Virus record (IMG/VR): IMGVR_UViG_2563366978_000009
Coordinates: 1-39,954 of that record
Strand: one strand, 5' to 3'
Source of the DNA: a virus
Taxonomy: Duplodnaviria > Heunggongvirae > Uroviricota > Caudoviricetes
DNA: 39,954 nucleotides
The translations under genes were made by a program, and so were the position numbers. Of the stretch, positions 3,494 through 26,554 are shown piece after piece; position 1 is the first letter of the stretch, and every line of letters begins with the position of its first letter. Under the pieces are notes generated by a model, which had not been told where the DNA came from, made no database searches, and saw only the letters and a list, made by a program, of their open reading frames with translations.

Positions 3494-6469
3494 TTACATT
3501 GCCATTAATATAAACATAGCCAATTCGTCATAACGAATTCCGTAGCGTCCTCCTGCTTTTTTTACAAGAATCATATCTCCTGTTTTATATTGAGAATAAA
3601 TTTTCTCACCTGTATCAGGATCTGTGCTCTCTTCAGTTATCACCTCTTCATCCCATACGTCAGGCCATTCATCGTAACACCAAAAAGCATATTGCTCCGG
3701 GTTTAAACCATGCTTTCTAAGAATATCCCCTACGGTTTGAGCGCCAACGCCAAAATGATACCTGGACGACTCAATTCCTTTGTGATTAATTGAGTCATTA
3801 AATTTAAATTTATAGATGACTGACTTTATTTCAATAGCGGCATTACGCTCTGCATTAAGAATATCATATCTTGTTTTAAGAGTTTCATCTGACGTATTGA
3901 TTGACCCGGTTCCTGCATAGATAACAGAGCATCTGTTTGATGGCTGTCCAATAGCTTTAACATTATCATCAACAGGAGCTATTTTATTAGCATCTGCCAA
4001 CCACCAGTCTGTTCCATCAGCGTGACCGATTCTTACTCTTATCCCACTTCTAATATTTAAACTTCCAGTATTGCTCTGTAAATTACAATCTCCTGACGTT
4101 GGTCCAAGCAGTACAGTTTTACCAACACCACATACTACTCTGGCATTTCCTTTTTGTGATACGAGTCTTGACTCACCTCCTGACTGCTCAGGAAGAGATT
4201 TATGGTCTATAAATGCATCGCGGGGGTTAAATACACCGTCTCCAGAATTATATCTTCCTCCTGTATAGTTGTTAAATACAGGACCCCAGTCAACGCCATT
4301 GCCTTCAGAGCACCCGACCATTCTAAGCACTCGAGTATTCCCTGCTGCATATGGTAATGAGCTTGTTGATTGCCGGGAAGCTATCATACGTGCTCCATAA
4401 CCAATAGCATTACCACCATTTATAGTTACATATGCTTGCTGGCTTTCGAAATATGTACTGTAAAAGTTCATATTTCCACAGTCATGTAGATGAATAAGAA
4501 CATCATCCCATCCCTGAATGGTTCCTGCATGTACCTGTACACCGCGAACTGGTTCCCCTGAAACCTCCATACACTCTGATGGCCGGCTGAATGGCTGAGA
4601 CAGGTATTGCGATGTGGCAAGCAGATGTGTGTGGTGATACAGGCTGGTAATGTAGCAATCGAAAAATTGCGTTCCCGCCATACCAAAGTTATCTATGTCA
4701 TTTCGCCGTATAGTAGAACCTACTGTTGCCTCAGAAGCGTTAGACACTCCAGTAAATACTAACTTATCACCGGATACGGATAATCCTGAATAAGTGAAAT
4801 TCCTGCCTCCCGATCTTAAAACCCCGGACGTTTCGAAGGTGTGGCTTGATGACCATGGGATTTCGATAGTGCTGGACGTTACCGCTGTAATTCGGAATAC
4901 ATCATGGGCGCGGATCGAAACACCCTTGAATCCCTGGAATCTACAGTGATAATAGTTTTCATCCTCGCCCTGAGCGGCCAGCGTGCCAGATACAGGAATG
5001 TTCGTTTTTAAAAGTGCCGTCTTGCGCCAGTATCCAACCACCTGCAAATTGCGGTATTCATTGCCAAAAGACGCACGTGACCAAATACCTACATCCCACT
5101 CATCGCCAAGACCGGTATTTGCAATGTCTTTATAACCATCCAGCCCATTGAAATATGGAACAATACGAAAGTTCTCAAGGCGAACACATCCTGTCTCTGG
5201 CATCAATATTGCGGCAGAGAATGGTTTAAGCGTGGCTCTTGTAGCCCCATTAGCATCACCGTTAGTAAAATCCAATAAATCATATGATGACGCAGGTGCC
5301 GTTGTTGTATACGGGTCTTCGGAAGATGGATTAGAAACCACACCACCACTAACATCCATATTAGAAACACAATCTACAGTATATTTTTTATTTCCTACAC
5401 CGTACATCAGGAATGTGGTCCCTGTGGTAATATCAGGAGCAAATGTTGCAGTATATCCAGAGACCCATTTGCCCACACCAAGACCAATTATCCCACCACC
5501 AGAAACAGGTGTTAACGTATCCGTTATTACATACGCATTATCAGTACCATAAATAACCTTTCCTGTGTTAATGGCAGCTTGCCACGCGGCCCAGTCTATT
5601 GACTGAGATAATGAGTCAACAAAAGGATATAAGGATTTTGCTTCAGAAATTGAAGAAAACCTCTCAGATAATGGATGATATTTCCCATCCCCAATTGCTC
5701 CGAATTGTTTTACATTTAAGAAAAGAGCATTGTTTTCATGCTGAGTTATAGTTACAGCCCCGGCAAATGGCTGCCTTACACCAATTAATGCATCACCTTT
5801 TCCTTCTCCTGCGCTAGATAATTGCAGAAGAACATCTGCGGCACTGCCAGAAGGCACAGGTACACCTATAGGTTTACCATTGACGATACCAATGACAGTT
5901 TCTTCCAGTAAATGAACTGGAGGAAGTGGTTCAATAAAATTATCTGGAACCCGTAATGTCCTGTTAATATTCACATTAACAATATTATCAACATAATTCT
6001 TTGTAGCTGCATCTTGAGGCTTGGAAGGATCGCGCAAATTGCGGATGTAATTATTCAAAGCATCGTAATAGTTTGCCACAAATGATGGTTTGCGCAGCGC
6101 CAGGCTAAACCAACTGCGGACTTGCTGTATCAGCATCGTCAGCTTATCTAACGCGTCTTCATGCACCTCAGCGAAAAACTTTCCCTGATTTCGCAGATCA
6201 GTTTCCTGCGTAACCGGGAGCTCTCGTGATATAGAAATCTGATAACCGTTAGCTAACGCCTTCGACAGAATTACATTACCGCCATTATATCCACCAGCCC
6301 CAGTGACAGTGTAATCAGTATCAAGAGCCAGCACAGCGATATTTTCGTCAAGGTCAACCACCTGCACTACCAGATCAGATTCCTTGAAAACCCTAAAGGT
6401 ATAAGGAAATGAAGTCGTAACGCCATTGCCTGTGTATTCGTTGTGGTCAACTTCGGTTGAGACCGTCAT
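3494..6469 (-). CDS. Tailspike / tail fibre: T7 gp17-like N-terminal adaptor, central receptor-binding region, C-terminal S74-type intramolecular chaperone
   Basis: 991 aa; GGAG RBS. N-terminus (EYTGNGVTTSFPYTF...LDTDYTV) resembles the T7 tail-fibre N-domain. C-terminal ~150 aa has the SDETLKT block, like the Ser-Lys autocleavage motif of endosialidase-type chaperone domains. Gly/Ser/Thr/Asn-rich middle. Confidence 0.75.
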   Translation of the reverse strand: MTVSTEVDHNEYTGNGVTTSFPYTFRVFKESDLVVQVVDLDENIAVLALDTDYTVTGAGGYNGGNVILSKALANGYQISISRELPVTQETDLRNQGKFFAEVHEDALDKLTMLIQQVRSWFSLALRKPSFVANYYDALNNYIRNLRDPSKPQDAATKNYVDNIVNVNINRTLRVPDNFIEPLPPVHLLEETVIGIVNGKPIGVPVPSGSAADVLLQLSSAGEGKGDALIGVRQPFAGAVTITQHENNALFLNVKQFGAIGDGKYHPLSERFSSISEAKSLYPFVDSLSQSIDWAAWQAAINTGKVIYGTDNAYVITDTLTPVSGGGIIGLGVGKWVSGYTATFAPDITTGTTFLMYGVGNKKYTVDCVSNMDVSGGVVSNPSSEDPYTTTAPASSYDLLDFTNGDANGATRATLKPFSAAILMPETGCVRLENFRIVPYFNGLDGYKDIANTGLGDEWDVGIWSRASFGNEYRNLQVVGYWRKTALLKTNIPVSGTLAAQGEDENYYHCRFQGFKGVSIRAHDVFRITAVTSSTIEIPWSSSHTFETSGVLRSGGRNFTYSGLSVSGDKLVFTGVSNASEATVGSTIRRNDIDNFGMAGTQFFDCYITSLYHHTHLLATSQYLSQPFSRPSECMEVSGEPVRGVQVHAGTIQGWDDVLIHLHDCGNMNFYSTYFESQQAYVTINGGNAIGYGARMIASRQSTSSLPYAAGNTRVLRMVGCSEGNGVDWGPVFNNYTGGRYNSGDGVFNPRDAFIDHKSLPEQSGGESRLVSQKGNARVVCGVGKTVLLGPTSGDCNLQSNTGSLNIRSGIRVRIGHADGTDWWLADANKIAPVDDNVKAIGQPSNRCSVIYAGTGSINTSDETLKTRYDILNAERNAAIEIKSVIYKFKFNDSINHKGIESSRYHFGVGAQTVGDILRKHGLNPEQYAFWCYDEWPDVWDEEVITEESTDPDTGEKIYSQYKTGDMILVKKAGGRYGIRYDELAMFILMAM

Positions 6470-6930: not shown

Positions 6931-6946
6931 GGCCGCAAGAGCGGCC
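6931..6946. terminator. Hairpin between convergent genes
   Basis: GGCCGC AAGA GCGGCC; shared by the + gene ending at 6923 and the - gene ending at 6946. Confidence 0.45.
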
Positions 6947-7674
6947 TATCGTTTCGCTTTGTGCTCATCCCAGCACGTTTTGCACCATGCCATTAAGCCG
7001 TCCGCATTTTGATTATTAGGGTAAAAGCTGGTTCGTTTTCTGCGGACATTACAAATTGGGCACCACTTCATATGGCGTGTATTCTTTGGGCCATCGAGAC
7101 ACCTTGCACACCACTTAGTCAATCCATCTGGATTTTTTGACGATTTCCTGAATTTTTCATATGGAAGGTTTATTCTGCATCGCAAGCACTGCTTGCTACC
7201 ACTTGAAACTCTGTTAGCTGATTCTTCTTTTGGCGGCGATACAGAAGGTATTCTTGCTGGCTCTGATACTGCCTGAGGTGCTTTTTTAGATGACTGAGAC
7301 GATATGTCACCACCAGGGAATCTTCCATGATATGCCGGACGCGTTGACACTCCAGGTGGAAGCTCAGCTGTAAACGGCTTTGACTGAATCAGTTGCCTCT
7401 CTTTTGCTAACTCCTGCTGTTTATAATATGTCTGGATTACCGCACTATCATAAGCAGGAGGTGCGGAAATATTAGGCGCATTACCTCCAGTTTTTTGAAA
7501 CTGAGTAGAGGTGTGTTCTATCACCTGTGTACGATTAATCGTTATCTCCCCATCTTCGGTCTTTATCGTTTTGTTATGATTAACGACCGTACGATCAGAG
7601 ATCTTAGTCTTGTTCTGGTTGATAACGTAAATAATCACCGCAACCACACCAACAACTATCCAGAAAACTTCCAT
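6946..7674 (-). CDS. Membrane-anchored protein with Pro/Ser-rich linker and C-terminal triple zinc-ribbon-like repeats
   Basis: N-terminal TM (MEVFWIVVGVVAVIIYVI); C-terminus has CLRC, DGLTKWCARC, KWCPIC, DGLMAWCKTC. No family recognised. Confidence 0.6.
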   Translation of the reverse strand: MEVFWIVVGVVAVIIYVINQNKTKISDRTVVNHNKTIKTEDGEITINRTQVIEHTSTQFQKTGGNAPNISAPPAYDSAVIQTYYKQQELAKERQLIQSKPFTAELPPGVSTRPAYHGRFPGGDISSQSSKKAPQAVSEPARIPSVSPPKEESANRVSSGSKQCLRCRINLPYEKFRKSSKNPDGLTKWCARCLDGPKNTRHMKWCPICNVRRKRTSFYPNNQNADGLMAWCKTCWDEHKAKR

Positions 7675-8876: not shown

Positions 8877-9056
8877 ATGCGAAACGAAAAATTGCAGATG
8901 CGTAGAGCGCAAGCTGCCGCAAGACGTTCTTTCAATGGAAGCGTAGAGTACGTAAAAGTTACTATGACAAAAGATCACGCAAGTCGCGTATCCCGCGCTT
9001 TCTTTGATTCTCGTAACAATAAGGAAAATTATGAGTTCGTCTGCGTCGCAGAATGA
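8877..9056 (+). CDS. Small basic ORF (59 aa) overlapping the YafO-like gene start; candidate antitoxin
   Basis: GAGG RBS 7 nt upstream; below the 60-aa track cutoff; 26-nt overlap with the next gene in another frame. No family recognised. Confidence 0.3.
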   Translation: MRNEKLQMRRAQAAARRSFNGSVEYVKVTMTKDHASRVSRAFFDSRNNKENYEFVCVAE

Positions 9057-9576
9057 TAAAAATCAAATTGTCAGATATAAGGGTCGAGTGTTGCATACGC
9101 AAAATTTCTCGGCCCTTTGTGCATCTGATCTTGAGCTGAAGAAAGTATCTGATGCCTTTACCCAGTATTGGAAAACGGGATACCATCCATCTCTTGGTAA
9201 AGATGCTGCATTTGCTCGTCCGACAGAAATGCTTAAACTAAATGTCAGGCATACTCATGTCGATAACCAAGACTATATTCCAGAAGATAGTGATAAAAAA
9301 CACACTGGTAAAAAATCATCTTGGGATGCATGGAAAAATATAGCGTCTGTACAAGTAAAATGCATACCAACAAGTGATTGCTTTTTAGTTTATTCGGTAA
9401 ATCACAATCGTGATGCGCTGGTTATGTTTTTTGTTGACGCAGATGCTCACAACATAACTGAGCAAGAAGAGTTTAAAGAGGAAGCAATCACTATCAGTTA
9501 TCAATTCTTTGAGAAAACAAAAACAGAACCAATGCCTTTAGAAGAAGATCTTTTTTCTGATAAATGGAAGGAATAG
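9031..9576 (+). CDS. YafO-family toxin-like protein
   Basis: ATG at 9031 with AAGGA RBS (track ORF starts at an upstream TTG). Blocks SDAFTQYWKTG, LGKDAAFA, VRHTHVDNQDYIP, CFLVYSVNHNRDALVMFFVDA parallel YafO as recalled (FISYKRDG, FGRDALY, VAHIHLANENNPFP, AHLVYCQGAFDEQAWLLIAIL). Low GC. Confidence 0.5.
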   Translation: MSSSASQNDKNQIVRYKGRVLHTQNFSALCASDLELKKVSDAFTQYWKTGYHPSLGKDAAFARPTEMLKLNVRHTHVDNQDYIPEDSDKKHTGKKSSWDAWKNIASVQVKCIPTSDCFLVYSVNHNRDALVMFFVDADAHNITEQEEFKEEAITISYQFFEKTKTEPMPLEEDLFSDKWKE

Positions 9577-9596
9577 CCCGCAGCGCGGGCTTTTTT
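9576..9596 (+). terminator. Rho-independent terminator
   Basis: GCCCGC AGC GCGGGC followed by six T, directly after the stop at 9574..9576. Confidence 0.7.
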
Positions 9597-9668
9597 GTGG
9601 ACGAAACAAAAGTCAGTGCTACACTCATTGACGCCACATTGAGGTGGCTTATAGATGGAAATTTCACA

Positions 9669-9830
9669 ATGAAAAAAGCATTTGCTGCACTGTTCGTTTT
9701 GTTGTCTCTGGTAGCTTCAACTCAGGCCTTTGCCGGTCGTTGTCAGCACGACAGCGATACTGCTGCTGACGGCTCCCGCTGCGGTGGGCGTTCTGCGGAT
9801 TCCCGTCCGGGCGGCGGTGGCATTCGTTAA
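9669..9830 (+). CDS. Small secreted Cys-containing peptide (53 aa)
   Basis: Signal peptide MKKAFAALFVLLSLVASTQAFA then a Gly/Arg/Ser-rich 31-aa tail with two Cys; higher GC than its neighbours. Could be spurious. Confidence 0.35.
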   Translation: MKKAFAALFVLLSLVASTQAFAGRCQHDSDTAADGSRCGGRSADSRPGGGGIR

Positions 9831-9858
9831 AAACAAGGCCGCGAAAGCGGCCTGTTTG
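9829..9858. terminator. Bidirectional terminator between convergent genes
   Basis: A-run, GGCCGC GAAA GCGGCC, then TGTTTG. Confidence 0.6.
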
Positions 9859-9859
9859 A

Positions 9860-10711
9860 TCACTGTGCAGTTTTCGCTGATCGATTTTCAGCTCTAAATT
9901 CAAGAACCGTTTCAATATTTCTTTCCTTCAGCATATCAATAACATTTTTATTCATTTGACTATCACTGGTTAATAACTGGTAAACGTCGCTTCTCTCTTT
10001 ATCAGAGTTTTCTTTAACAGCTGCTTTGCATGCCAAATGCTTATTGAAATTTTCTACATCGCTAGTACAGGAATTTACGGCTGCTGATGAAATATCAGAC
10101 GCTGAAGAAACACCATCATCCAAACGTTTTATAGCATTTTCTATACATGAGTTAAGGGAATAAACGACAACTGAGCGATACCCTTCAGACGCACACCATT
10201 CTAAATTTCTTGAAGGATCGAGTGGTTTTACTTCGCTGGATTGAATTAACTTGTCAAAAACTGACTTATATTCAATCTGTTTTTTATCTATAGCCCATAC
10301 TTCAGTAGCTGATTTATAATTCCCCGTATGCCTATTAACATCAAATCCATGTTTTATAAGCAAATCTGCCCATGAAAGATTTATTGATTCATTGTTATGA
10401 GGCCATTTTCCTGTCAGAACCGCCCCCATAGACCCCATATATCCGCCATATGATGGTATAGCACCATGGCTCAGTAACTTCTCAGCAACCACAGGGCAAT
10501 TAATTACATAAGAGGCGTAAAGCCCATTCCATAAAGCCCCTCTATAGTAATCGCCACGATTAGGTTCTTTTAAGTCGATAGCCTTTGATAATTGTTCACA
10601 CGTTTTGCATGCATCAAAGTTATCCTTATTGCATTGCAATGAACTGGCAGCTGTAGGATTTACAGAGACTATTGAAAGCACTATGCCAAAAAACAAATTT
10701 ATTTTTTTCAT
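9860..10711 (-). CDS. Secreted protein with possible ankyrin-like repeats; last gene of the virion operon
   Basis: Start 2 nt after the gp16-like stop; signal peptide MKKINLFFGIVLSIVSVNPTAAS; segments VVAEKLLSHGAIP and ADLLIKHGFDVNRHTGNYKSAT resemble ankyrin repeats (tentative); low GC. Confidence 0.6.
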   Translation of the reverse strand: MKKINLFFGIVLSIVSVNPTAASSLQCNKDNFDACKTCEQLSKAIDLKEPNRGDYYRGALWNGLYASYVINCPVVAEKLLSHGAIPSYGGYMGSMGAVLTGKWPHNNESINLSWADLLIKHGFDVNRHTGNYKSATEVWAIDKKQIEYKSVFDKLIQSSEVKPLDPSRNLEWCASEGYRSVVVYSLNSCIENAIKRLDDGVSSASDISSAAVNSCTSDVENFNKHLACKAAVKENSDKERSDVYQLLTSDSQMNKNVIDMLKERNIETVLEFRAENRSAKTAQ

Positions 10712-10712
10712 C

Positions 10713-13700
10713 CTATTTCATCTGCTCTTCAACTTTATTTAGTAATGGTGATATCGCCCACAGGTTCTGAAAAGGTAGCATTTTACGGACCGCGTGGGTT
10801 TGCTGGCTGTCAAATTCTCCGTTAAGTACACCATTCGCAACCGTCGCGGCATCACCGCCAAGATCAAAGGTAGGACCAAGTAAAGCACCAATAGCATTAC
10901 GACTCTGAAACCTTGATACCGGAGGCGCACCAAACATCGCGCCAAGACCAAACCTACCACCGCTTATGTTCTCAACGGTATTCAGCGGCTCAGAGAGCCA
11001 GCCAAGCATTCCGCCCCGGTCGATCCCCTCTTTCACAAGGTTATTCCAGCTGTAGTCAATATCGCGACCGCTTAACTTCTGTTTCATCATATAGACCATT
11101 GAGCCAAGCGCAATCGTGCCAAGCGCACCAAGATAGAATGCAGCATCGCCCTGCTGGATACCAGATACCAGCACCCTGTTATGCTGTGCGAAGATAAACG
11201 TTTTGAACTGCGTGATCATCTTCCAGCCTTCTTTACTAAAAAACAGCGGTGTATCACCTACGCCAGGCGTTACAATCACTGAGTCTACATCTTTCAGCAC
11301 TGCAGACTGGAAAATCTCTCTAGCGAAACGGTCATCCCACAGATGACTATGCCCGGTTAACAGCCCGTCCATATCCTCTCCGTGCTTCCCGAATTGCTCC
11401 CCGATTCGGCGCAGAACATCTTCATTGATGCCGACCTGTGCCATCTTCCGCATTTCACTTTTGGAGAGCGTGCCACCAGCAGAAACTTGGCGAGCCGCGT
11501 CAAGTATCCTCGACTGCACTATCATCCCAGACCATGATTTAAGTGCGCTGTTCCACTGATTCATCAGCGTCCAGTTACCGAATTTCTGCGTCATCCAGTT
11601 CAGGCCTCGCTCAGCGGCGCTTCTCCGGCTATATGGGTCAGTAAGATCCGCTATAGCCTTTGTACGCGTAGACAGGACATAATCAAGCCCAACGGCCATT
11701 TCTCGCAAATCCCTGGTTGCAATCTTCACTGAGTCCATATTTTTAAGCATGCTTACCATTGGTCCGAGAGATTTTCTCAGGCCATGCTGCATCATCGGTC
11801 GCATCAGATCAGTTGCAGCGGAGACGGTCATTCCACCAAGCAAACGGAGGAAGTTAATATTCCTAGCAACTCGCCCGGCACGAACAAAGAAACTGCGTGG
11901 ATCTTGAGGTGCACCGTAAGTACCAAGCAGTCGATCACGCATAGCCGTAATATCCCTAATATCAGCCTCCCGTTGCTTCTCAAGAACTGCACGTCGTTTA
12001 GGTGTTTTAGCCTCTTTTATTAGCCGGGTATATTCCTCACTAACCTGACGGATTTGCTCCCCCATATCTTTACGGCCAAACTGCGCAGTCAGCTCAATTT
12101 CTGGTGCCACCTGCCGGAGATAACTTTCCATGATGTAGTTAACATCTGATTCAAGAAAATCTTCTATACGCTCATCAGGAATAAGCAGCGTTCTGCTTTT
12201 AGTGAAACCAGCCCGACCAACGAGTCTCTCTGGGATAATATCGGCTGGTACAAGCCCGGAAGGTGCGCCTATTATTTTATTCACGATCTCGTCAGCAGCG
12301 TCCTCTGCTTCCTCTCGGGATAGAGGCTCCATCTGCTTCAGTGCTCGTTCGCGGCTTGCATTCAGCCTTGTGGTTGAATTTGCCCGTTTTTGCAGTCGGC
12401 GAAGCTCAGAACGATATTTCCGTGGATTATCCAACAACTCCATATGGCGCTGATAGACAGGAAGCTCACTCTTTGCCTGCGCTATATCATCAAGGCGTGT
12501 TTTAAGGTCAGAGCTTTCTTTCATCATTCTTGCCTGAAGTTTTTCTGATGAAGTCTCGGCCAACTCTTTTTCTATTCTTGTAAGACGCGCCTGTGTGTCA
12601 GTCTCCTGAGATATAAGCTTATTTCGTTTATCCAGTTCTTCCATGAGTAGAATTTTTTTACCAGACCATTTCTCCGCTTCAGCGATTTCACTAGCGAGAG
12701 CATCAGCGCGCGGTGCCGATTCCTCTGCAGTTTTTAGCAATGAATTTATCCTTTCAATTCGCTGACCTGCTTTGTCAGCACCTTTGGCACTAATCCCTTG
12801 TATCCAGTTGGCAATTCGCCCTCTGAATTCAGTGCGGTCGGAAAGTATCTTATCGAACTTATAAATGCGGGGAAGATAACTTTTCGCCGTCACGACATCG
12901 ATATCCTTAGGAAGGATCCCCAGTTCCTGCATACGGGCTTTTGTGGTCTCGAAAATGGGGCGGATTCTGGCGGCTGCTTGTGAAACCTCAGGAATATCAC
13001 TCTGATCACCACGGCGCATAGCCATGCCAACAGCTTCATTGAAATCAATAAAGTTCATCCTCTTCACGCCGCGGGCGCTAACAGATTTGCTGTACTGCTG
13101 GTAAGCATCACGAGTGGCTTCCATCTGCTTATAAAGCATGGCGTCGTATTGCTTAATCTTAGTCTCGACTGCCGTAAACGTAGCCAACCCCTCATCATTT
13201 TTGGCGAAGAAATAGTTATTTTCGGCAAGCTGCTGGTTAATCTGACGGGAGACAAGAGATGGTGATTGCGCCAAGCGGCCAGCAGGAGTGACACTCAACG
13301 TTTTGTTAGCAAGTCCAAGTCCAGCGAGCTGTTCCTGATCGAGTGTGGTATTGAAAACCTGAGCTGCACCAATGCTTTGAGGAGAATCCATACCTCGCAA
13401 ATGATTACCTACTGAGTTAACCACTGCCTCGCGCGCGCCAGGTCCAGCAAGTAGCTGTGCACCAGCACCAAGGATCCCACCAACGAGAGCATCAACAACA
13501 ACGTTCGATACGCTCTCCATCGGTGAGCGAGCTTCCTGAGTGGCCTGTAATGCGGCCTCTGAAGCAACACTGCCAGCAGCATTCGCCAGGGCAAAACGCC
13601 CGGCTGTTTCTGCAATACGACCGCCACGAACGACAGCGCCGAACGGAATAAACATAGAAATCGCATTGAATGGATCTGCTAATCTCATTGCTACAGAAGA

Positions 13701-14102
13701 GACTGTACCAGCAAATCCCAAGCCTGAATTGTATTCCATGTCAGCTCTCTGCTGATCGATTCGATGTTTAATTGCCATTGTTTCTTCAGGCGAACCGGAG
13801 TTGATAAACGAATCTGCAAAATCTTCATAGCCTTTAATATCTGCTGCATCGTTATCAAATGGGTTATATCCTTCAACCCTGTCAAACTGACTGAAAGGAG
13901 CACTGGCAATAAAGCTACCCAGCGTGTTATCTATACGAAATGCTGCTTGTCTAGACCTTTGAACGCGTTGATCACTGGTAAATGGGTTCACAGCAGAAAG
14001 CAAAGAAGGTGTTTCCATATAGAAATTACTGTCATCAGGTGCTGCTATTTGCTGAATATCCTCGCCAAGCAACTCTTTAGGATCCTGTTCATATATCGGC
14101 AT
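10713..14102 (-). CDS. Internal virion / ejection protein, T7 gp16-like position
   Basis: 1129 aa, directly downstream of the gp15-like and gp14-like genes; assigned by size and order. Confidence 0.55.
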   Translation of the reverse strand: MPIYEQDPKELLGEDIQQIAAPDDSNFYMETPSLLSAVNPFTSDQRVQRSRQAAFRIDNTLGSFIASAPFSQFDRVEGYNPFDNDAADIKGYEDFADSFINSGSPEETMAIKHRIDQQRADMEYNSGLGFAGTVSSVAMRLADPFNAISMFIPFGAVVRGGRIAETAGRFALANAAGSVASEAALQATQEARSPMESVSNVVVDALVGGILGAGAQLLAGPGAREAVVNSVGNHLRGMDSPQSIGAAQVFNTTLDQEQLAGLGLANKTLSVTPAGRLAQSPSLVSRQINQQLAENNYFFAKNDEGLATFTAVETKIKQYDAMLYKQMEATRDAYQQYSKSVSARGVKRMNFIDFNEAVGMAMRRGDQSDIPEVSQAAARIRPIFETTKARMQELGILPKDIDVVTAKSYLPRIYKFDKILSDRTEFRGRIANWIQGISAKGADKAGQRIERINSLLKTAEESAPRADALASEIAEAEKWSGKKILLMEELDKRNKLISQETDTQARLTRIEKELAETSSEKLQARMMKESSDLKTRLDDIAQAKSELPVYQRHMELLDNPRKYRSELRRLQKRANSTTRLNASRERALKQMEPLSREEAEDAADEIVNKIIGAPSGLVPADIIPERLVGRAGFTKSRTLLIPDERIEDFLESDVNYIMESYLRQVAPEIELTAQFGRKDMGEQIRQVSEEYTRLIKEAKTPKRRAVLEKQREADIRDITAMRDRLLGTYGAPQDPRSFFVRAGRVARNINFLRLLGGMTVSAATDLMRPMMQHGLRKSLGPMVSMLKNMDSVKIATRDLREMAVGLDYVLSTRTKAIADLTDPYSRRSAAERGLNWMTQKFGNWTLMNQWNSALKSWSGMIVQSRILDAARQVSAGGTLSKSEMRKMAQVGINEDVLRRIGEQFGKHGEDMDGLLTGHSHLWDDRFAREIFQSAVLKDVDSVIVTPGVGDTPLFFSKEGWKMITQFKTFIFAQHNRVLVSGIQQGDAAFYLGALGTIALGSMVYMMKQKLSGRDIDYSWNNLVKEGIDRGGMLGWLSEPLNTVENISGGRFGLGAMFGAPPVSRFQSRNAIGALLGPTFDLGGDAATVANGVLNGEFDSQQTHAVRKMLPFQNLWAISPLLNKVEEQMK

Positions 14103-16852
14103 TATTTGCCCCCTGCGTATATATTGCTCGGAAGGTAATTGGCTGAACCATAACCGAATGGTTTGGTCAGATCTGGAGGAGTATATCCATCTTTATTGCT
14201 GAACTGCGGCAGCGGATTGCCTTCTCTCCGCACTCTAGCCTCATCAACACGCTGTTGCTGGAACTGAATGGTTTGCCTGTACATTGGAGATGTCAGCTGA
14301 TCCGGCTTGAAACGAACAGGGAGACCATTTTCTCCAATATAATTTCTCGGTTCTATCGCTCCGTTTGCGTCAGGCTGTAAAACCATAACAGCATAACTCC
14401 TATCCCTTGCCGTAAGGCCATCAGAAACAAGTATTAAGTCCGTATCACTGCGAGGACCGCCAAAGGATTTTGATTTAAGCTCGCGTTTTTCCTGCTCCCA
14501 CTGCCCCTGTATCCAGTTACCAGCACCATTATTTACTCCGTACAATGCCTCAGGTGCATACTTCATAACCTCTGCTTTGCCATTAACCGTAGAAACTCCC
14601 CAGGTGGTTCTGATCATGGCATTGGTCATTTTCTCAGCCTGTTCTGCATCGCCACCTGTCTGTACAAAGTTAGCATCGTAAATTGTCTGGTAATCTCGCT
14701 GATAGGCCGCATTTGATTTTCCTGGATCGGTAATATCCGGAGACCACGAACCAAAGGAAGTCAGACTGCTGGCGTTATTTTGTGCAGCAGTTGCCCTCGC
14801 CGCGACATATTTTTTGTCTCGCATGGCAGTGGAAAGCATCTGTTTCATTCGGTCATCCTGTTGGAACACCTGGCTGTAAGCCATATCAACAGCCTTATCC
14901 TCCGGCACGCCAGCGCGGGAATAATCGTAAACCTTGCCGTAAAATGCCATCGTACTTTTATCAAGTGTTGCCGCTGCCGCCGGATTATTATCGAATAACT
15001 GACCGTAGAATTTTGCCATCGGGACAACCAGCGCAGGATCTCTTGATGTTGCTCCACTGTTAAGCATTGTTTTAACCTGAGTTGGTATCATGCCGCTTTT
15101 AGTTGTGACGGTGACCAGTGTATTGATGCTCTGCGGATCAGATATGGAAAACGAAGGCGCGATATCCTGCGCGAAATAACGGTCTACCGCTGCCTGATTG
15201 TTTTTGTCGTTCGGGTCCAGCGGGAAGTTATTTTGCATTGAAGACACGAACCTGTTTCTTCCCTGCTGAATCTCCCACTCCCTATCCATCTCTTTAAATT
15301 TGGCCTGCATTTTCTCCCAGCGTTGCTGGTTAGCTGCAAATCCAGGAGCGTTTGGATCCTGTGGACGTAAACGTTCAAGAATGTCTTGTCGTCCTTCTGG
15401 AGTGAGGTCTTTAGCGGCACCAATGACACCTCCATATTGTATCTGCGCCTGCATATCCTTCCACTTCATAGCGCCAATGCGCGGACCATTGGCCCGGATA
15501 AAATCGTCCTCAGAAGGTAACTGCTCAGGTTTCAATCCTTCATCAAGGGCTGAATATGCATCTTTAACTACGGTGCTAAGCTGGTCCGCATACTGCTGGC
15601 GGTACTGATTTCTCAGCTCATTAGCCTGCCTCAATGCCTGTATTTGCATTTGAGGGCTCATAGCATCAAATGCCGCATTGCCCGTATAACGCTTAGGTGA
15701 ATCAAGGTTAGTTAGACCAAGGGCTGCCGAGATACCAGTTTCAAGCTGTTCGGTGCTATAAGGCATACTGCCATTTTCGTGTTTAATAATCCCAGCACAT
15801 AAAGCAGCTAGTGTCTTTGGGTTAGAGATATCAAGCTGATCATTCTCCCCAACACCAAGCTCACTACACAATGCCCTAATATAAGCATCAGTATTATTAC
15901 CATCACTAGCCGGAGCATAGCGATTAACAATCTCGCTAACGGTGTCATAGCCTTGACGCTGGTAAGACAATATATTTTTACCCAACGCGCGGATTCCATG
16001 CTCAGGGGTAGCAAACGTTGCAAAACGTCCATCGCTACCGATCTGACCTTCCCACGGGTTAGATTTGCTCGCTTCAATATTACCAGGGTTATTATTACGT
16101 AAACCACGAGCATCCAATGAATTACCATGTGATATTGCACGACTCACACCATCAAGATCCCCTGGCTCTCCATTAACCTGAAGAAACTCGTTGTATTTTT
16201 GAGCGATATTTCCTATCCATGCTTGCTGCCCCATTTGTTCCTTGAGCTGAGTTTTCTGCTGAACACGCCACCCATCAGGAAGCCCATGCGCATCAGCATA
16301 TTGATCAATAGATTCAAATCGCTGCTTGGCTAAATCGACAAATGCTTGGTTATCGCTATATAGCCCCGCAGACTGAGTGACAGCCAATGCATTTCCTGAC
16401 AAATACGTTTGATCTTGGAATTGCTGAAACTGCCCAACTTCATATCGACGTGCCTGATTGTAATAAGACTGCATAGACTGCTGGAGTTGAAAGGATAATT
16501 TATTCCTTTCCTCACTTTCAGGAATTGAGCCTAATAATGCCTGAGCCCTTTCCTGCATATTTTTCATAACAGCGTCACTCTGACCAAGAGCGTTTTTACC
16601 CTGTTTAGAAATCAGCCCATTTTCAGGGTTGTTAATCTGGTCATCTGCAAATTGGTTAAATTGCAGTAACGCCTCCTGGGCCATAGCAACATTCGCTTTC
16701 TGCCTGGCTTCACCATATGCCACCGCATACTGATCTGCGACATTCGCCAGCACCTGACCTGCTTGAGGAACATCGAAGGTCTGAAAACCACCGGTTTGCA
16801 CACCACGACTTTGCACCTGGCGTCCGGATGTAGTAGGAACAACAGGCATCAA
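14102..16852 (-). CDS. Internal virion protein, T7 gp15-like position
   Basis: 916 aa; overlapping start/stop with flanking genes; contains a conserved-looking block RNNNPGNIEASKSNPWEGQIG. Confidence 0.55.
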   Translation of the reverse strand: MMPVVPTTSGRQVQSRGVQTGGFQTFDVPQAGQVLANVADQYAVAYGEARQKANVAMAQEALLQFNQFADDQINNPENGLISKQGKNALGQSDAVMKNMQERAQALLGSIPESEERNKLSFQLQQSMQSYYNQARRYEVGQFQQFQDQTYLSGNALAVTQSAGLYSDNQAFVDLAKQRFESIDQYADAHGLPDGWRVQQKTQLKEQMGQQAWIGNIAQKYNEFLQVNGEPGDLDGVSRAISHGNSLDARGLRNNNPGNIEASKSNPWEGQIGSDGRFATFATPEHGIRALGKNILSYQRQGYDTVSEIVNRYAPASDGNNTDAYIRALCSELGVGENDQLDISNPKTLAALCAGIIKHENGSMPYSTEQLETGISAALGLTNLDSPKRYTGNAAFDAMSPQMQIQALRQANELRNQYRQQYADQLSTVVKDAYSALDEGLKPEQLPSEDDFIRANGPRIGAMKWKDMQAQIQYGGVIGAAKDLTPEGRQDILERLRPQDPNAPGFAANQQRWEKMQAKFKEMDREWEIQQGRNRFVSSMQNNFPLDPNDKNNQAAVDRYFAQDIAPSFSISDPQSINTLVTVTTKSGMIPTQVKTMLNSGATSRDPALVVPMAKFYGQLFDNNPAAAATLDKSTMAFYGKVYDYSRAGVPEDKAVDMAYSQVFQQDDRMKQMLSTAMRDKKYVAARATAAQNNASSLTSFGSWSPDITDPGKSNAAYQRDYQTIYDANFVQTGGDAEQAEKMTNAMIRTTWGVSTVNGKAEVMKYAPEALYGVNNGAGNWIQGQWEQEKRELKSKSFGGPRSDTDLILVSDGLTARDRSYAVMVLQPDANGAIEPRNYIGENGLPVRFKPDQLTSPMYRQTIQFQQQRVDEARVRREGNPLPQFSNKDGYTPPDLTKPFGYGSANYLPSNIYAGGK

Positions 16853-17415
16853 TAACCTCCTATTTTGAATCGGGAGTCAGAATTCATAAAACCTGAGTTA
16901 GATAACATTGGCGTGTTTCCTTGCTTACTAATCGGATTGATACTTCCGCCACCCAACTTATATGCACCGTATGCTTTTAGTGGTGCCGTTAACAAAGTGC
17001 TGGTCATCGATGATTTAGCAGCCGACTGAGCAGCAGCCCCCTGTGCCTGAGCATTCATTCCCTGAACCTGATACCCATATGCCTCACGCTGAGCATTATT
17101 CACTGTCGTTAACGCATCAAGAGTGCCGAACTGAGCATTATCCGCAAAAACGTCAAGAGCTGTTCCGCTACTTAATTCCGCACCGGTAGCCCCCATAGTA
17201 GCCGCCGCAGTGCCTGAGCGTTGACGCATTTCACGACGACGCTGATCCGCTTCAATATTCCCACGATTGATTGAATCCTGTGCCTGAGCTTCAGCAATTT
17301 CAGCATTCCGATCTGCTATGGCTGACTGGTATTTTGCCTGCTTGCTCTGGCTGTACATTGACGCTGCTGTGGATGCCACTGTGACGGCAACCAAAGCGAT
17401 GGCTGGGTTACACAT
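16849..17415 (-). CDS. Internal virion protein, T7 gp14-like
   Basis: 188 aa; N-terminus MCNPAIALVAVTVASTAASMYSQSKQAKYQSAIADRNAEI parallels the T7 gp14 N-terminus as recalled. Confidence 0.6.
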   Translation of the reverse strand: MCNPAIALVAVTVASTAASMYSQSKQAKYQSAIADRNAEIAEAQAQDSINRGNIEADQRRREMRQRSGTAAATMGATGAELSSGTALDVFADNAQFGTLDALTTVNNAQREAYGYQVQGMNAQAQGAAAQSAAKSSMTSTLLTAPLKAYGAYKLGGGSINPISKQGNTPMLSNSGFMNSDSRFKIGGY

Positions 17416-26477: not shown

Positions 26478-26554
26478 GTGGCATTAGCTCAGTTGGACAG
26501 AGCAACCGCCTTCTAAGCGGTTGGTCGCAGGTTCGAATCCTGCATGCCACGCCA
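26478..26554 (+). tRNA. tRNA-Arg (anticodon UCU), phage-encoded
   Basis: Hand-folded cloverleaf: acceptor GUGGCAU/AUGCCAC, D-arm GCUC-AGUUGGACA-GAGC, anticodon stem ACCGC/GCGGU with loop CUUCUAA, T-arm GCAGG-UUCGAAU-CCUGC, discriminator G, encoded CCA. Confidence 0.9.

Follow-up and report, generated by a model that had tools for sequence, protein, structure and literature searches.

The last gene of the injection operon

The window analyzed here (the whole stretch of 39,954 nt, IMG/VR record IMGVR_UViG_2563366978_000009) is the prophage of a temperate podophage, and the subject of this report is a 283-amino-acid (aa) open reading frame (ORF) on its minus strand (Table 1). The gene order on that strand was terminase, portal, protease, capsid, an 821-aa gene, a 154-aa gene, a gp14-family gene, the 916-aa and 1129-aa genes, the 283-aa ORF and a terminator, and the ORF can accurately be called the final gene of the injection operon. 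Past the terminator were an accessory region (a small secreted protein, a YafO-like toxin and Ant), the tailspike gene and the lysis cassette.

A first-pass annotation, made from the letters of the sequence, had described a low-GC gene that starts 2 nt after the stop of a gp16-like gene and is expressed with the virion operon. The upstream gene and the junction were as described. The GC content was 36.9% in the ORF and 47–50% in the upstream virion genes (28% and 41–52% at third codon positions), and homologues in all five genera compared were 9–17 points below their flanks. The terminator hairpin directly 3′ of the ORF's stop ends the virion/ejection operon, and both strands between 9400 and 11200 were devoid of sigma-70-like sites (3.6 expected). 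Because the gap is 1 nt, no promoter-like site was found and a terminator lies only past the gene, expression along with the virion operon is plausible; the tight coupling claimed earlier was observed directly. The ratio of nonsynonymous to synonymous substitution rates was 0.15–0.17 for the gene family (unsaturated comparisons), which argues that the gene is real, functional and under purifying selection.

The protein matched PHROG 6118 over its full length (E 1.7e-200, residues 1–283 on profile positions 1–283), a catalogued family that carries no functional or structural annotation. Scans of the protein against Pfam, NCBIfam and PADLOC gave no match, and its RefSeq record, WP_000723561, was not mentioned in the literature searched. 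A near-identical genome is that of EC.W1-9, a free phage from sewage (GenBank PP445227), where the gene is labeled "hypothetical." The same prophage was present in Escherichia coli IHE3034, avian pathogenic E. coli (APEC) O18, ST131 and others. The gene was found in 106 of 5426 complete E. coli genomes, extraintestinal pathogenic (ExPEC) and APEC lineages included; it was chromosomal each time, and no plasmid-borne homologues were found. Close relatives were few (22 among 5.8 billion proteins) and came from E. coli, Klebsiella, Serratia, Morganella and Providencia.

Table 1 Coordinates of the 283-aa ORF, its parts and other features of the window
Feature	Position	Strand	Description
283-aa ORF, putatively exported two-domain protein (PHROG 6118)	9860..10711, stop included	-	ATG start; sole long ORF there
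Sec-type signal peptide, aa 1-23	10643..10711	-	MKK / INLFFGIVLSIVSV / NPTAAS; from hydropathy and sequence, cleavage site predicted
N-terminal domain, aa 24-160	10232..10642	-	Cys-rich cap (C27, C35-x-x-C38, C72) and about three divergent ankyrin repeats
C-terminal helical domain, aa 161-283	9863..10231	-	Motif C-x9-LDDGxSxASDI-x9-C ... VLExR; model pLDDT about 88-96
Gene junction	10712..10715	-	TAG of 1129-aa gene (10715-10713) and one spacer base (10712), then ATG at 10711
Bidirectional intrinsic terminator	9836..9853	both	GC-rich hairpin, T-runs on both strands
1129-aa gp16-like internal virion (ejection) protein	10713..14102	-	phrog_342 "internal virion protein with endolysin domain," E 3.7e-233
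916-aa gp15-like ejection protein	14102..16852	-	Carries Enc34/PHA02564-type domain
Enc34/PHA02564-type peptidoglycan hydrolase domain, aa 248-400 of 916-aa protein	15653..16111	-	HENGS catalytic motif kept; proposed target
188-aa T7 gp14-family internal virion protein	16849..17415	-	First gene of the ejectosome trio; PF24072, E 7.5e-8; RefSeq annotation
991-aa tailspike	3494..6469	-	GC 34-42%
242-aa protein	6946..7674	-	N-terminal transmembrane helix
YafO-like type II toxin	9004..9576	+	PF13957, E 9e-6; phrog_1651
Small secreted/membrane protein	9564..9830	+	MKKAFAALFVLLSLVASTQAFA...; 53 aa from internal ATG, 88 aa from first start
tRNA-Arg (anticodon TCT)	26478..26554	+	Between portal and terminase genes

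Leader, domain fusion and ankyrin fold

The N-terminus (MKK, 14 hydrophobic residues, NPTAAS) had the features of a Sec/signal peptidase I leader with no lipobox, which bears out the signal peptide recognized by the first-pass annotation. All 14 full-length homologues kept a leader of this type, and the leader sequence itself was variable (19–78% identity). The mature protein would be approximately 29 kDa with eight cysteines, all of which were invariant across the 14 homologues. On the strength of the leader and these cysteines, the mature protein is predicted to be periplasmic, where it is probably stabilized by four disulfides. Two other readings of these residues were rejected. A lipoprotein is contradicted by the missing lipobox, and the Cys of the Morganella homologue is at +2 after ALA/K; heme binding through CxxC is contradicted by the lack of CxxCH, and linkage to cytochrome c was limited to a distant subfamily.

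By exhaustive profile searching, the protein proved to be built of two fused domains, each of which also occurs free-standing with its own leader, a feature that had been overlooked earlier. Residues ∼24–160 matched free-standing proteins of 155–175 aa, and residues ∼161–283 matched free-standing secreted proteins of 110–155 aa with the motif C-x9-LDDGxSPASDIA-x8-C ... VLxxR. Identity between the E. coli and Morganella proteins was 51–55% in the N-domain and 25–28% in the C-domain.

The Pfam Ank models (PF00023, PF12796 and related models) did not match the window protein at E ≤ 1, and a PDB search with the single sequence returned designed ankyrin repeat proteins (DARPins) only, at E about 1. 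Among 41 N-domain relatives, 6 matched PF00023 (best E 7.3e-5). The N-domain family profile (A3) matched RBL4, an ankyrin-derived design (E 9.3e-8), and ankyrin-1 (E 9.7e-7) in the PDB, followed by ankyrin-B and DARPins; in a library of 1.8 billion proteins it also matched giant multirepeat ANK proteins. AlphaFold2, run with the 41-sequence alignment, modeled residues 24–165 as stacked helix-turn-helix and beta-hairpin repeats (predicted local distance difference test, pLDDT, 95.5; predicted template modeling score 0.90). Because the PDB profile matches, the PF00023 matches in relatives, the multi-ANK matches and the model agree, the N-domain is, as far as profiles and modeling can indicate, a genuine but very divergent ankyrin fold. 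The first-pass annotation had suspected degenerate ankyrin repeats in two segments. The repeats were recovered by both structure prediction and profiles, and their number was revised to about three: two recognizable units (aa ∼53–81 and 88–120, the second with an insertion, KWPHNNES) and a capping helix pair (135–160), preceded by the Cys-rich N-cap.

The C-domain was modeled as a confident helical bundle. Its profile found nothing in the PDB, no informative C-domain match was obtained in the PDB or BFVD, and a fold search of BFVD yielded no viral match of significance. Because the C-domain homologues were misaligned in it, a joint alignment (A2) of the two domain families was discarded. Genome-collection scans found C-domain relatives at two loci only. 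One free-standing, secreted homologue of 153 aa (L018 1289–2843) was directly downstream of a CI-type repressor gene (HTH_3 and Peptidase_S24), and the two were divergent from a Cro-like gene. The position directly behind a CI-type repressor is a classic place for exclusion genes expressed in the lysogen. The C-domain, fused and fast-evolving, is probably a second periplasmic binding module.

Association with Enc34-type hydrolases and candidate functions

Twelve independent free-standing N-domain loci had usable flanks, which were searched by tblastn (homologues 31–55% identical). An Enc34/PHA02564-like peptidoglycan hydrolase gene was immediately adjacent in 7 of the 12: directly downstream or overlapping (L016/17, L057, L061, L064), directly upstream as a hydrolase-DUF3892 fusion (L063, L071/72), or convergent to the ankyrin-domain gene (L069/70). 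At L016/L017 the ankyrin-domain gene was followed by a gene for a 178-aa leaderless protein, stop and start overlapping; this protein matched the structure of the Enc34 endolysin (7q47, E 1.9e-24) and, in 9vvp, the N-terminus of Gp29. This adjacency cannot be chance because the hydrolase family is rare in bacterial chromosomes and the loci are diverse, with partners 31–51% identical to one another. All paired hydrolases were leaderless, and a leaderless hydrolase beside a secreted partner has the layout of an effector–immunity pair. The hydrolases of L057 (5378–6025), L061 (4644–5174) and L064 (5413–5967) ended in histidine-rich tails (e.g., HEDRSHHHHHRHRNATHHT), which could be metal-binding or a delivery tag; the domain in the phage ejectosome had no such tail.

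These loci bear on two alternative explanations. The prophage gene may be an orphan interbacterial immunity gene, a case of lysogenic conversion, whose product neutralizes in the periplasm an Enc34-type muramidase that competing bacteria deliver as a type VI secretion system (T6SS) or other contact-dependent effector, to the benefit of the host. The free-standing homologues look like effector–immunity pairs in both gene orders, and the L064 pair was 1.3 kb from tssH/ClpV1 (TIGR03345, 1274 bits), the single T6SS-linked locus among those examined. Other loci resemble immunity islands, such as L060, where several small secreted proteins accompany a GH24-like gene; the low GC content and the replacement by other cargo described below would suit a moron. 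In S. rhizophila, immunity proteins with signal peptides have been reported for an Enc34-like T6SS effector domain (PMC13340143). A paper on a T4SS GH19 effector proved unrelated to the protein, since ankyrin appeared in its reference list only. Tai5a of that species, the only characterized immunity protein for such an effector domain, was rejected as a family member (hhalign probability 0.3% against the family profile), and therefore there is no characterized T6SS immunity protein of this ankyrin-domain family. Further, the prophage gene was always attached to ejectosome genes, had no detected promoter of its own, and had no T6SS genes within the window. The hydrolase domain of the window is two genes upstream and within an ejection protein, in contrast to the gene pairs of the free-standing homologues. 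We consider this explanation unlikely, albeit the strongest of the alternatives.

The protein might instead act on a eukaryotic host, made late and freed at lysis in the manner of Shiga toxin. Its model would be ANKp of the sponge "Ankyphages" (Jahn et al., bioRxiv 10.1101/608950), a phage ankyrin protein with a signal peptide and no transmembrane segment, judged to be nonstructural, which dampens phagocytosis and cytokines. The disulfide-rich character predicted here, the late operon position and the carriers (ExPEC and APEC strains, Klebsiella, Morganella and Serratia) are in keeping with such an effector. However, ANKp was found by the Pfam Ank signatures that the window protein lacks, and its target is eukaryotic immunity, whereas the genomic associations found here indicate a bacterial cell-wall enzyme. 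The closest ankyrin-domain relatives were from environmental metagenomes and free-living bacteria, beside cell-wall hydrolases; there is no secretion route past the periplasm, and the bias toward pathogenic carriers may reflect sequencing choice. The effector function offered by the first-pass annotation was weakened by these relatives, and we regard it as quite improbable.

An Enc34-type domain was also present in the phage's own ejection machinery. Residues 249–415 of the 916-aa protein were 31% identical to the L016 hydrolase (E 2e-24). The 916-aa protein matched 9vvp_L in the PDB (E 4e-35), and the excised domain matched 9vvp_L (E 8.7e-37) and the Enc34 endolysin 7q47 (E 1.5e-16), with the HENGS motif aligned. 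The Enc34/PHA02564 domain is experimentally muralytic (PMC8943055). It occurred in 808 phage records, where it serves either as an endolysin or, within internal virion or "ejectosome" proteins, as the muralytic portion; one of these records also had the 283-aa gene and 807 did not. Conversely, the gp15-like protein had an Enc34-like domain in every gene-carrying prophage with an available upstream region (L001, L002, L003, L006/7, L065). At that position the relative TL-2011b had an SLT domain (PF01464, aa 263–342), and it had no ankyrin gene. Because the Klebsiella phage that lacks the gene has the domain, the rule is that the gene implies the domain and not the reverse.

The gene directly followed the gp16-like gene in E. 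coli, Klebsiella, Serratia, Morganella and Providencia-type prophages, and this slot was kept despite differing tailspikes (beta-helix, GDSL lipase and endosialidase-type) and lysis cassettes. In two Klebsiella phages with an upstream protein 92% identical, the slot was filled by an unrelated, leaderless 204-aa gene (in ST512-KPC3phi13.3, L008 9400–10014, with no Pfam match), and TL-2011b had no co-oriented gene there. Since such near-identical phages carry the 204-aa gene instead, the 283-aa gene is, by this comparison, dispensable for virions, and the slot is a cargo exchange point. The same results bear on the suggestion, also made in the first-pass annotation, that the protein is an accessory or structural part of the virion, in this case one packaged together with the ejection proteins. 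A gene that closes the virion/ejection operon and is translationally coupled to the gene before it is what would be expected. Cytoplasmic assembly is, however, incompatible with the export leader and the conserved disulfide cysteines; in a very close Klebsiella phage the slot is occupied by an unrelated gene, all but one of the 808 phage records with the same ejectosome domain lack the gene, and no structural-protein matches were obtained. A packaged protein is accordingly very improbable.

The reading that we favor, tentatively and at a little under even chances, is that the 283-aa protein is a periplasmic, Spackle-like inhibitor of the Enc34-type muramidase that serves superinfection exclusion. 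A nonstructural accessory protein would be exported by Sec to the periplasm and disulfide-bonded there, and its N-terminal ankyrin-fold domain would bind and inhibit Enc34/PHA02564-type peptidoglycan hydrolases. The producing cell could then neutralize the muralytic domain of the 916-aa protein when a like phage tries to penetrate the cell wall with its ejectosome, and would in this way exclude superinfecting phages or withstand lysis-from-without, by analogy with the inhibition of the gp5 tail lysozyme by T4 Spackle. Blocking penetration by like phages would be the simplest role because the phage's own ejectosome carries an Enc34-type domain. Inhibition of an Enc34-type hydrolase, whatever the beneficiary, seems somewhat better founded. 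That a single exported fusion joins an ankyrin-fold immunity domain against the phage's own ejectosome muramidase to a second periplasmic exclusion module, the C-domain, is possible but more doubtful. Exclusion was thus the favored function among the three offered by the first-pass annotation, which had not seen the candidate target.

T4 Spackle (gp61.3) acts in the periplasm, where it inhibits the gp5 tail lysozyme (PMC7677548). The two proteins would be alike in being phage-encoded, small and exported to the periplasm by a signal peptide; Spackle is all-helical, and in each case the encoding phage carries a candidate target, a muralytic domain, in its own penetration device. They differ in that ankyrin repeats and a helical domain are found here, in that the target would be of the Enc34/PHA02564 type and not the T4-lysozyme type, and in that there is no sequence relationship: no Spackle chain appeared in PDB searches with the protein (E ≤ 10) or the N-domain profile (E ≤ 1). 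Spackle is also among the early genes, whereas the present gene is in the late operon of a temperate podophage and its inhibitory role is deduced from gene arrangement. A second parallel is found among the periplasmic immunity proteins against T6SS cell-wall and lipase effectors, such as the ankyrin-repeat protein Tli of Enterobacter cloacae (bioRxiv 10.1101/2023.03.28.534661; PDB 7ubz, 7kb2), in which a periplasmic ankyrin fold neutralizes an incoming hydrolase in the manner proposed here.

Several points weigh against the exclusion reading. It argues from guilt by association: we infer export, disulfides, binding, inhibition and the beneficiary, the binding and inhibition from gene neighborhood. 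Five of the 12 free-standing loci had no such hydrolase nearby (L054/55, L058, L059, L060, L068). A distant ankyrin-domain subfamily (27–31% identity) was coupled to a small cytochrome c gene (PF00034); in three contigs (L010 8001–8501, L011 622–1113, L013 8001–8489), the subfamily gene was chromosomal, overlapped the stop of the cytochrome c gene and was upstream of miaA. This coupling suggests a different periplasmic partner for that subfamily, and therefore the ankyrin-type fold is not tied to one partner. The conserved slot may stem from common descent rather than function, the contrast with TL-2011b is a single case, and the gene is missing from Klebsiella phages that carry the same hydrolase domain (89% identical). 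The gene also looks late-expressed, coupled as it is to the virion genes with no promoter-like site found, which is a poor fit to exclusion in the lysogen unless there is read-through or an undetected promoter. Finally, in the gene-carrying Morganella prophage (L003 12247–12723), the endolysin that follows two holin genes is of the Enc34 type and 42% identical to the phage's own ejectosome domain, so that an inhibitor without specificity would work against lysis by the phage itself. The family is thus used twice in one phage, and the inhibitor must be specific or take part in lysis timing.

Lysis timing is itself an alternative, in which the protein would be a late periplasmic anti-endolysin or an envelope conditioner that acts until holin triggering. 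The late-operon placement with no separate promoter found and the Morganella endolysin would agree with it. However, the endolysin is GH19 in the E. coli prophage and GH24 in the Serratia prophage, so that there is no consistent link between the gene and an endolysin type, and the free-standing homologues were outside lysis cassettes. Such a role is improbable.

The searched literature contains no description of the ankyrin fold, of the fusion of the two domains or of a link to Enc34-type muramidases. These findings assign a fold and a testable partner to PHROG 6118 and its free-standing relatives, and link the family to effector–immunity biology. To our knowledge, T4 Spackle is essentially the only protein for which the mechanism of superinfection exclusion at cell-wall penetration is understood. 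If the exclusion reading is correct, blocking of the ejectosome muramidase would be a general strategy, for which widespread temperate prophages have a second and unrelated solution. Exclusion of the Spackle kind and immunity in the periplasm would then extend to another fold and another muramidase, in temperate phages of clinically important enterobacteria. If the fused protein does combine the two modules, it would be the first Spackle-type anti-penetration system outside T-even phages. Bacteria, in turn, would pair an undescribed family of periplasmic immunity proteins with Enc34-type cell-wall effectors, and phage exclusion factors and interbacterial immunity proteins would come from a common pool. 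The mechanism would be relevant to host range in phage therapy because the ejection proteins of T7-like phages often carry Enc34-type domains.

Neighboring genes of the prophage

The gene for the small secreted/membrane protein converged on the terminator that it shares with the 283-aa gene, and its product matched phrog_14503, "membrane associated protein," in the moron category. This segment was found in ∼500 E. coli genomes, ∼390 of which did not have the ankyrin gene, and therefore it travels independently. The adjacent YafO-like toxin gene had a GC content of 36.8%, as low as that of the 283-aa gene, and a YafO-family toxin was annotated in the corresponding accessory region of IHE3034. 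The 242-aa protein had a Cys-rich, zinc-ribbon-like C-terminal region (weak Stc1 match) and no PADLOC match.

Only the C-terminus of the 991-aa tailspike had matches, to the endosialidase catalytic end and the intramolecular chaperone (PF12219 and PF13884, weak). In the otherwise near-identical IHE3034 prophage the same slot held a 1039-aa endosialidase, and therefore the tailspike has been swapped between strains. The tRNA-Arg gene was on the strand opposite to the virion operon and was annotated in the IHE3034 copy of the prophage as well.

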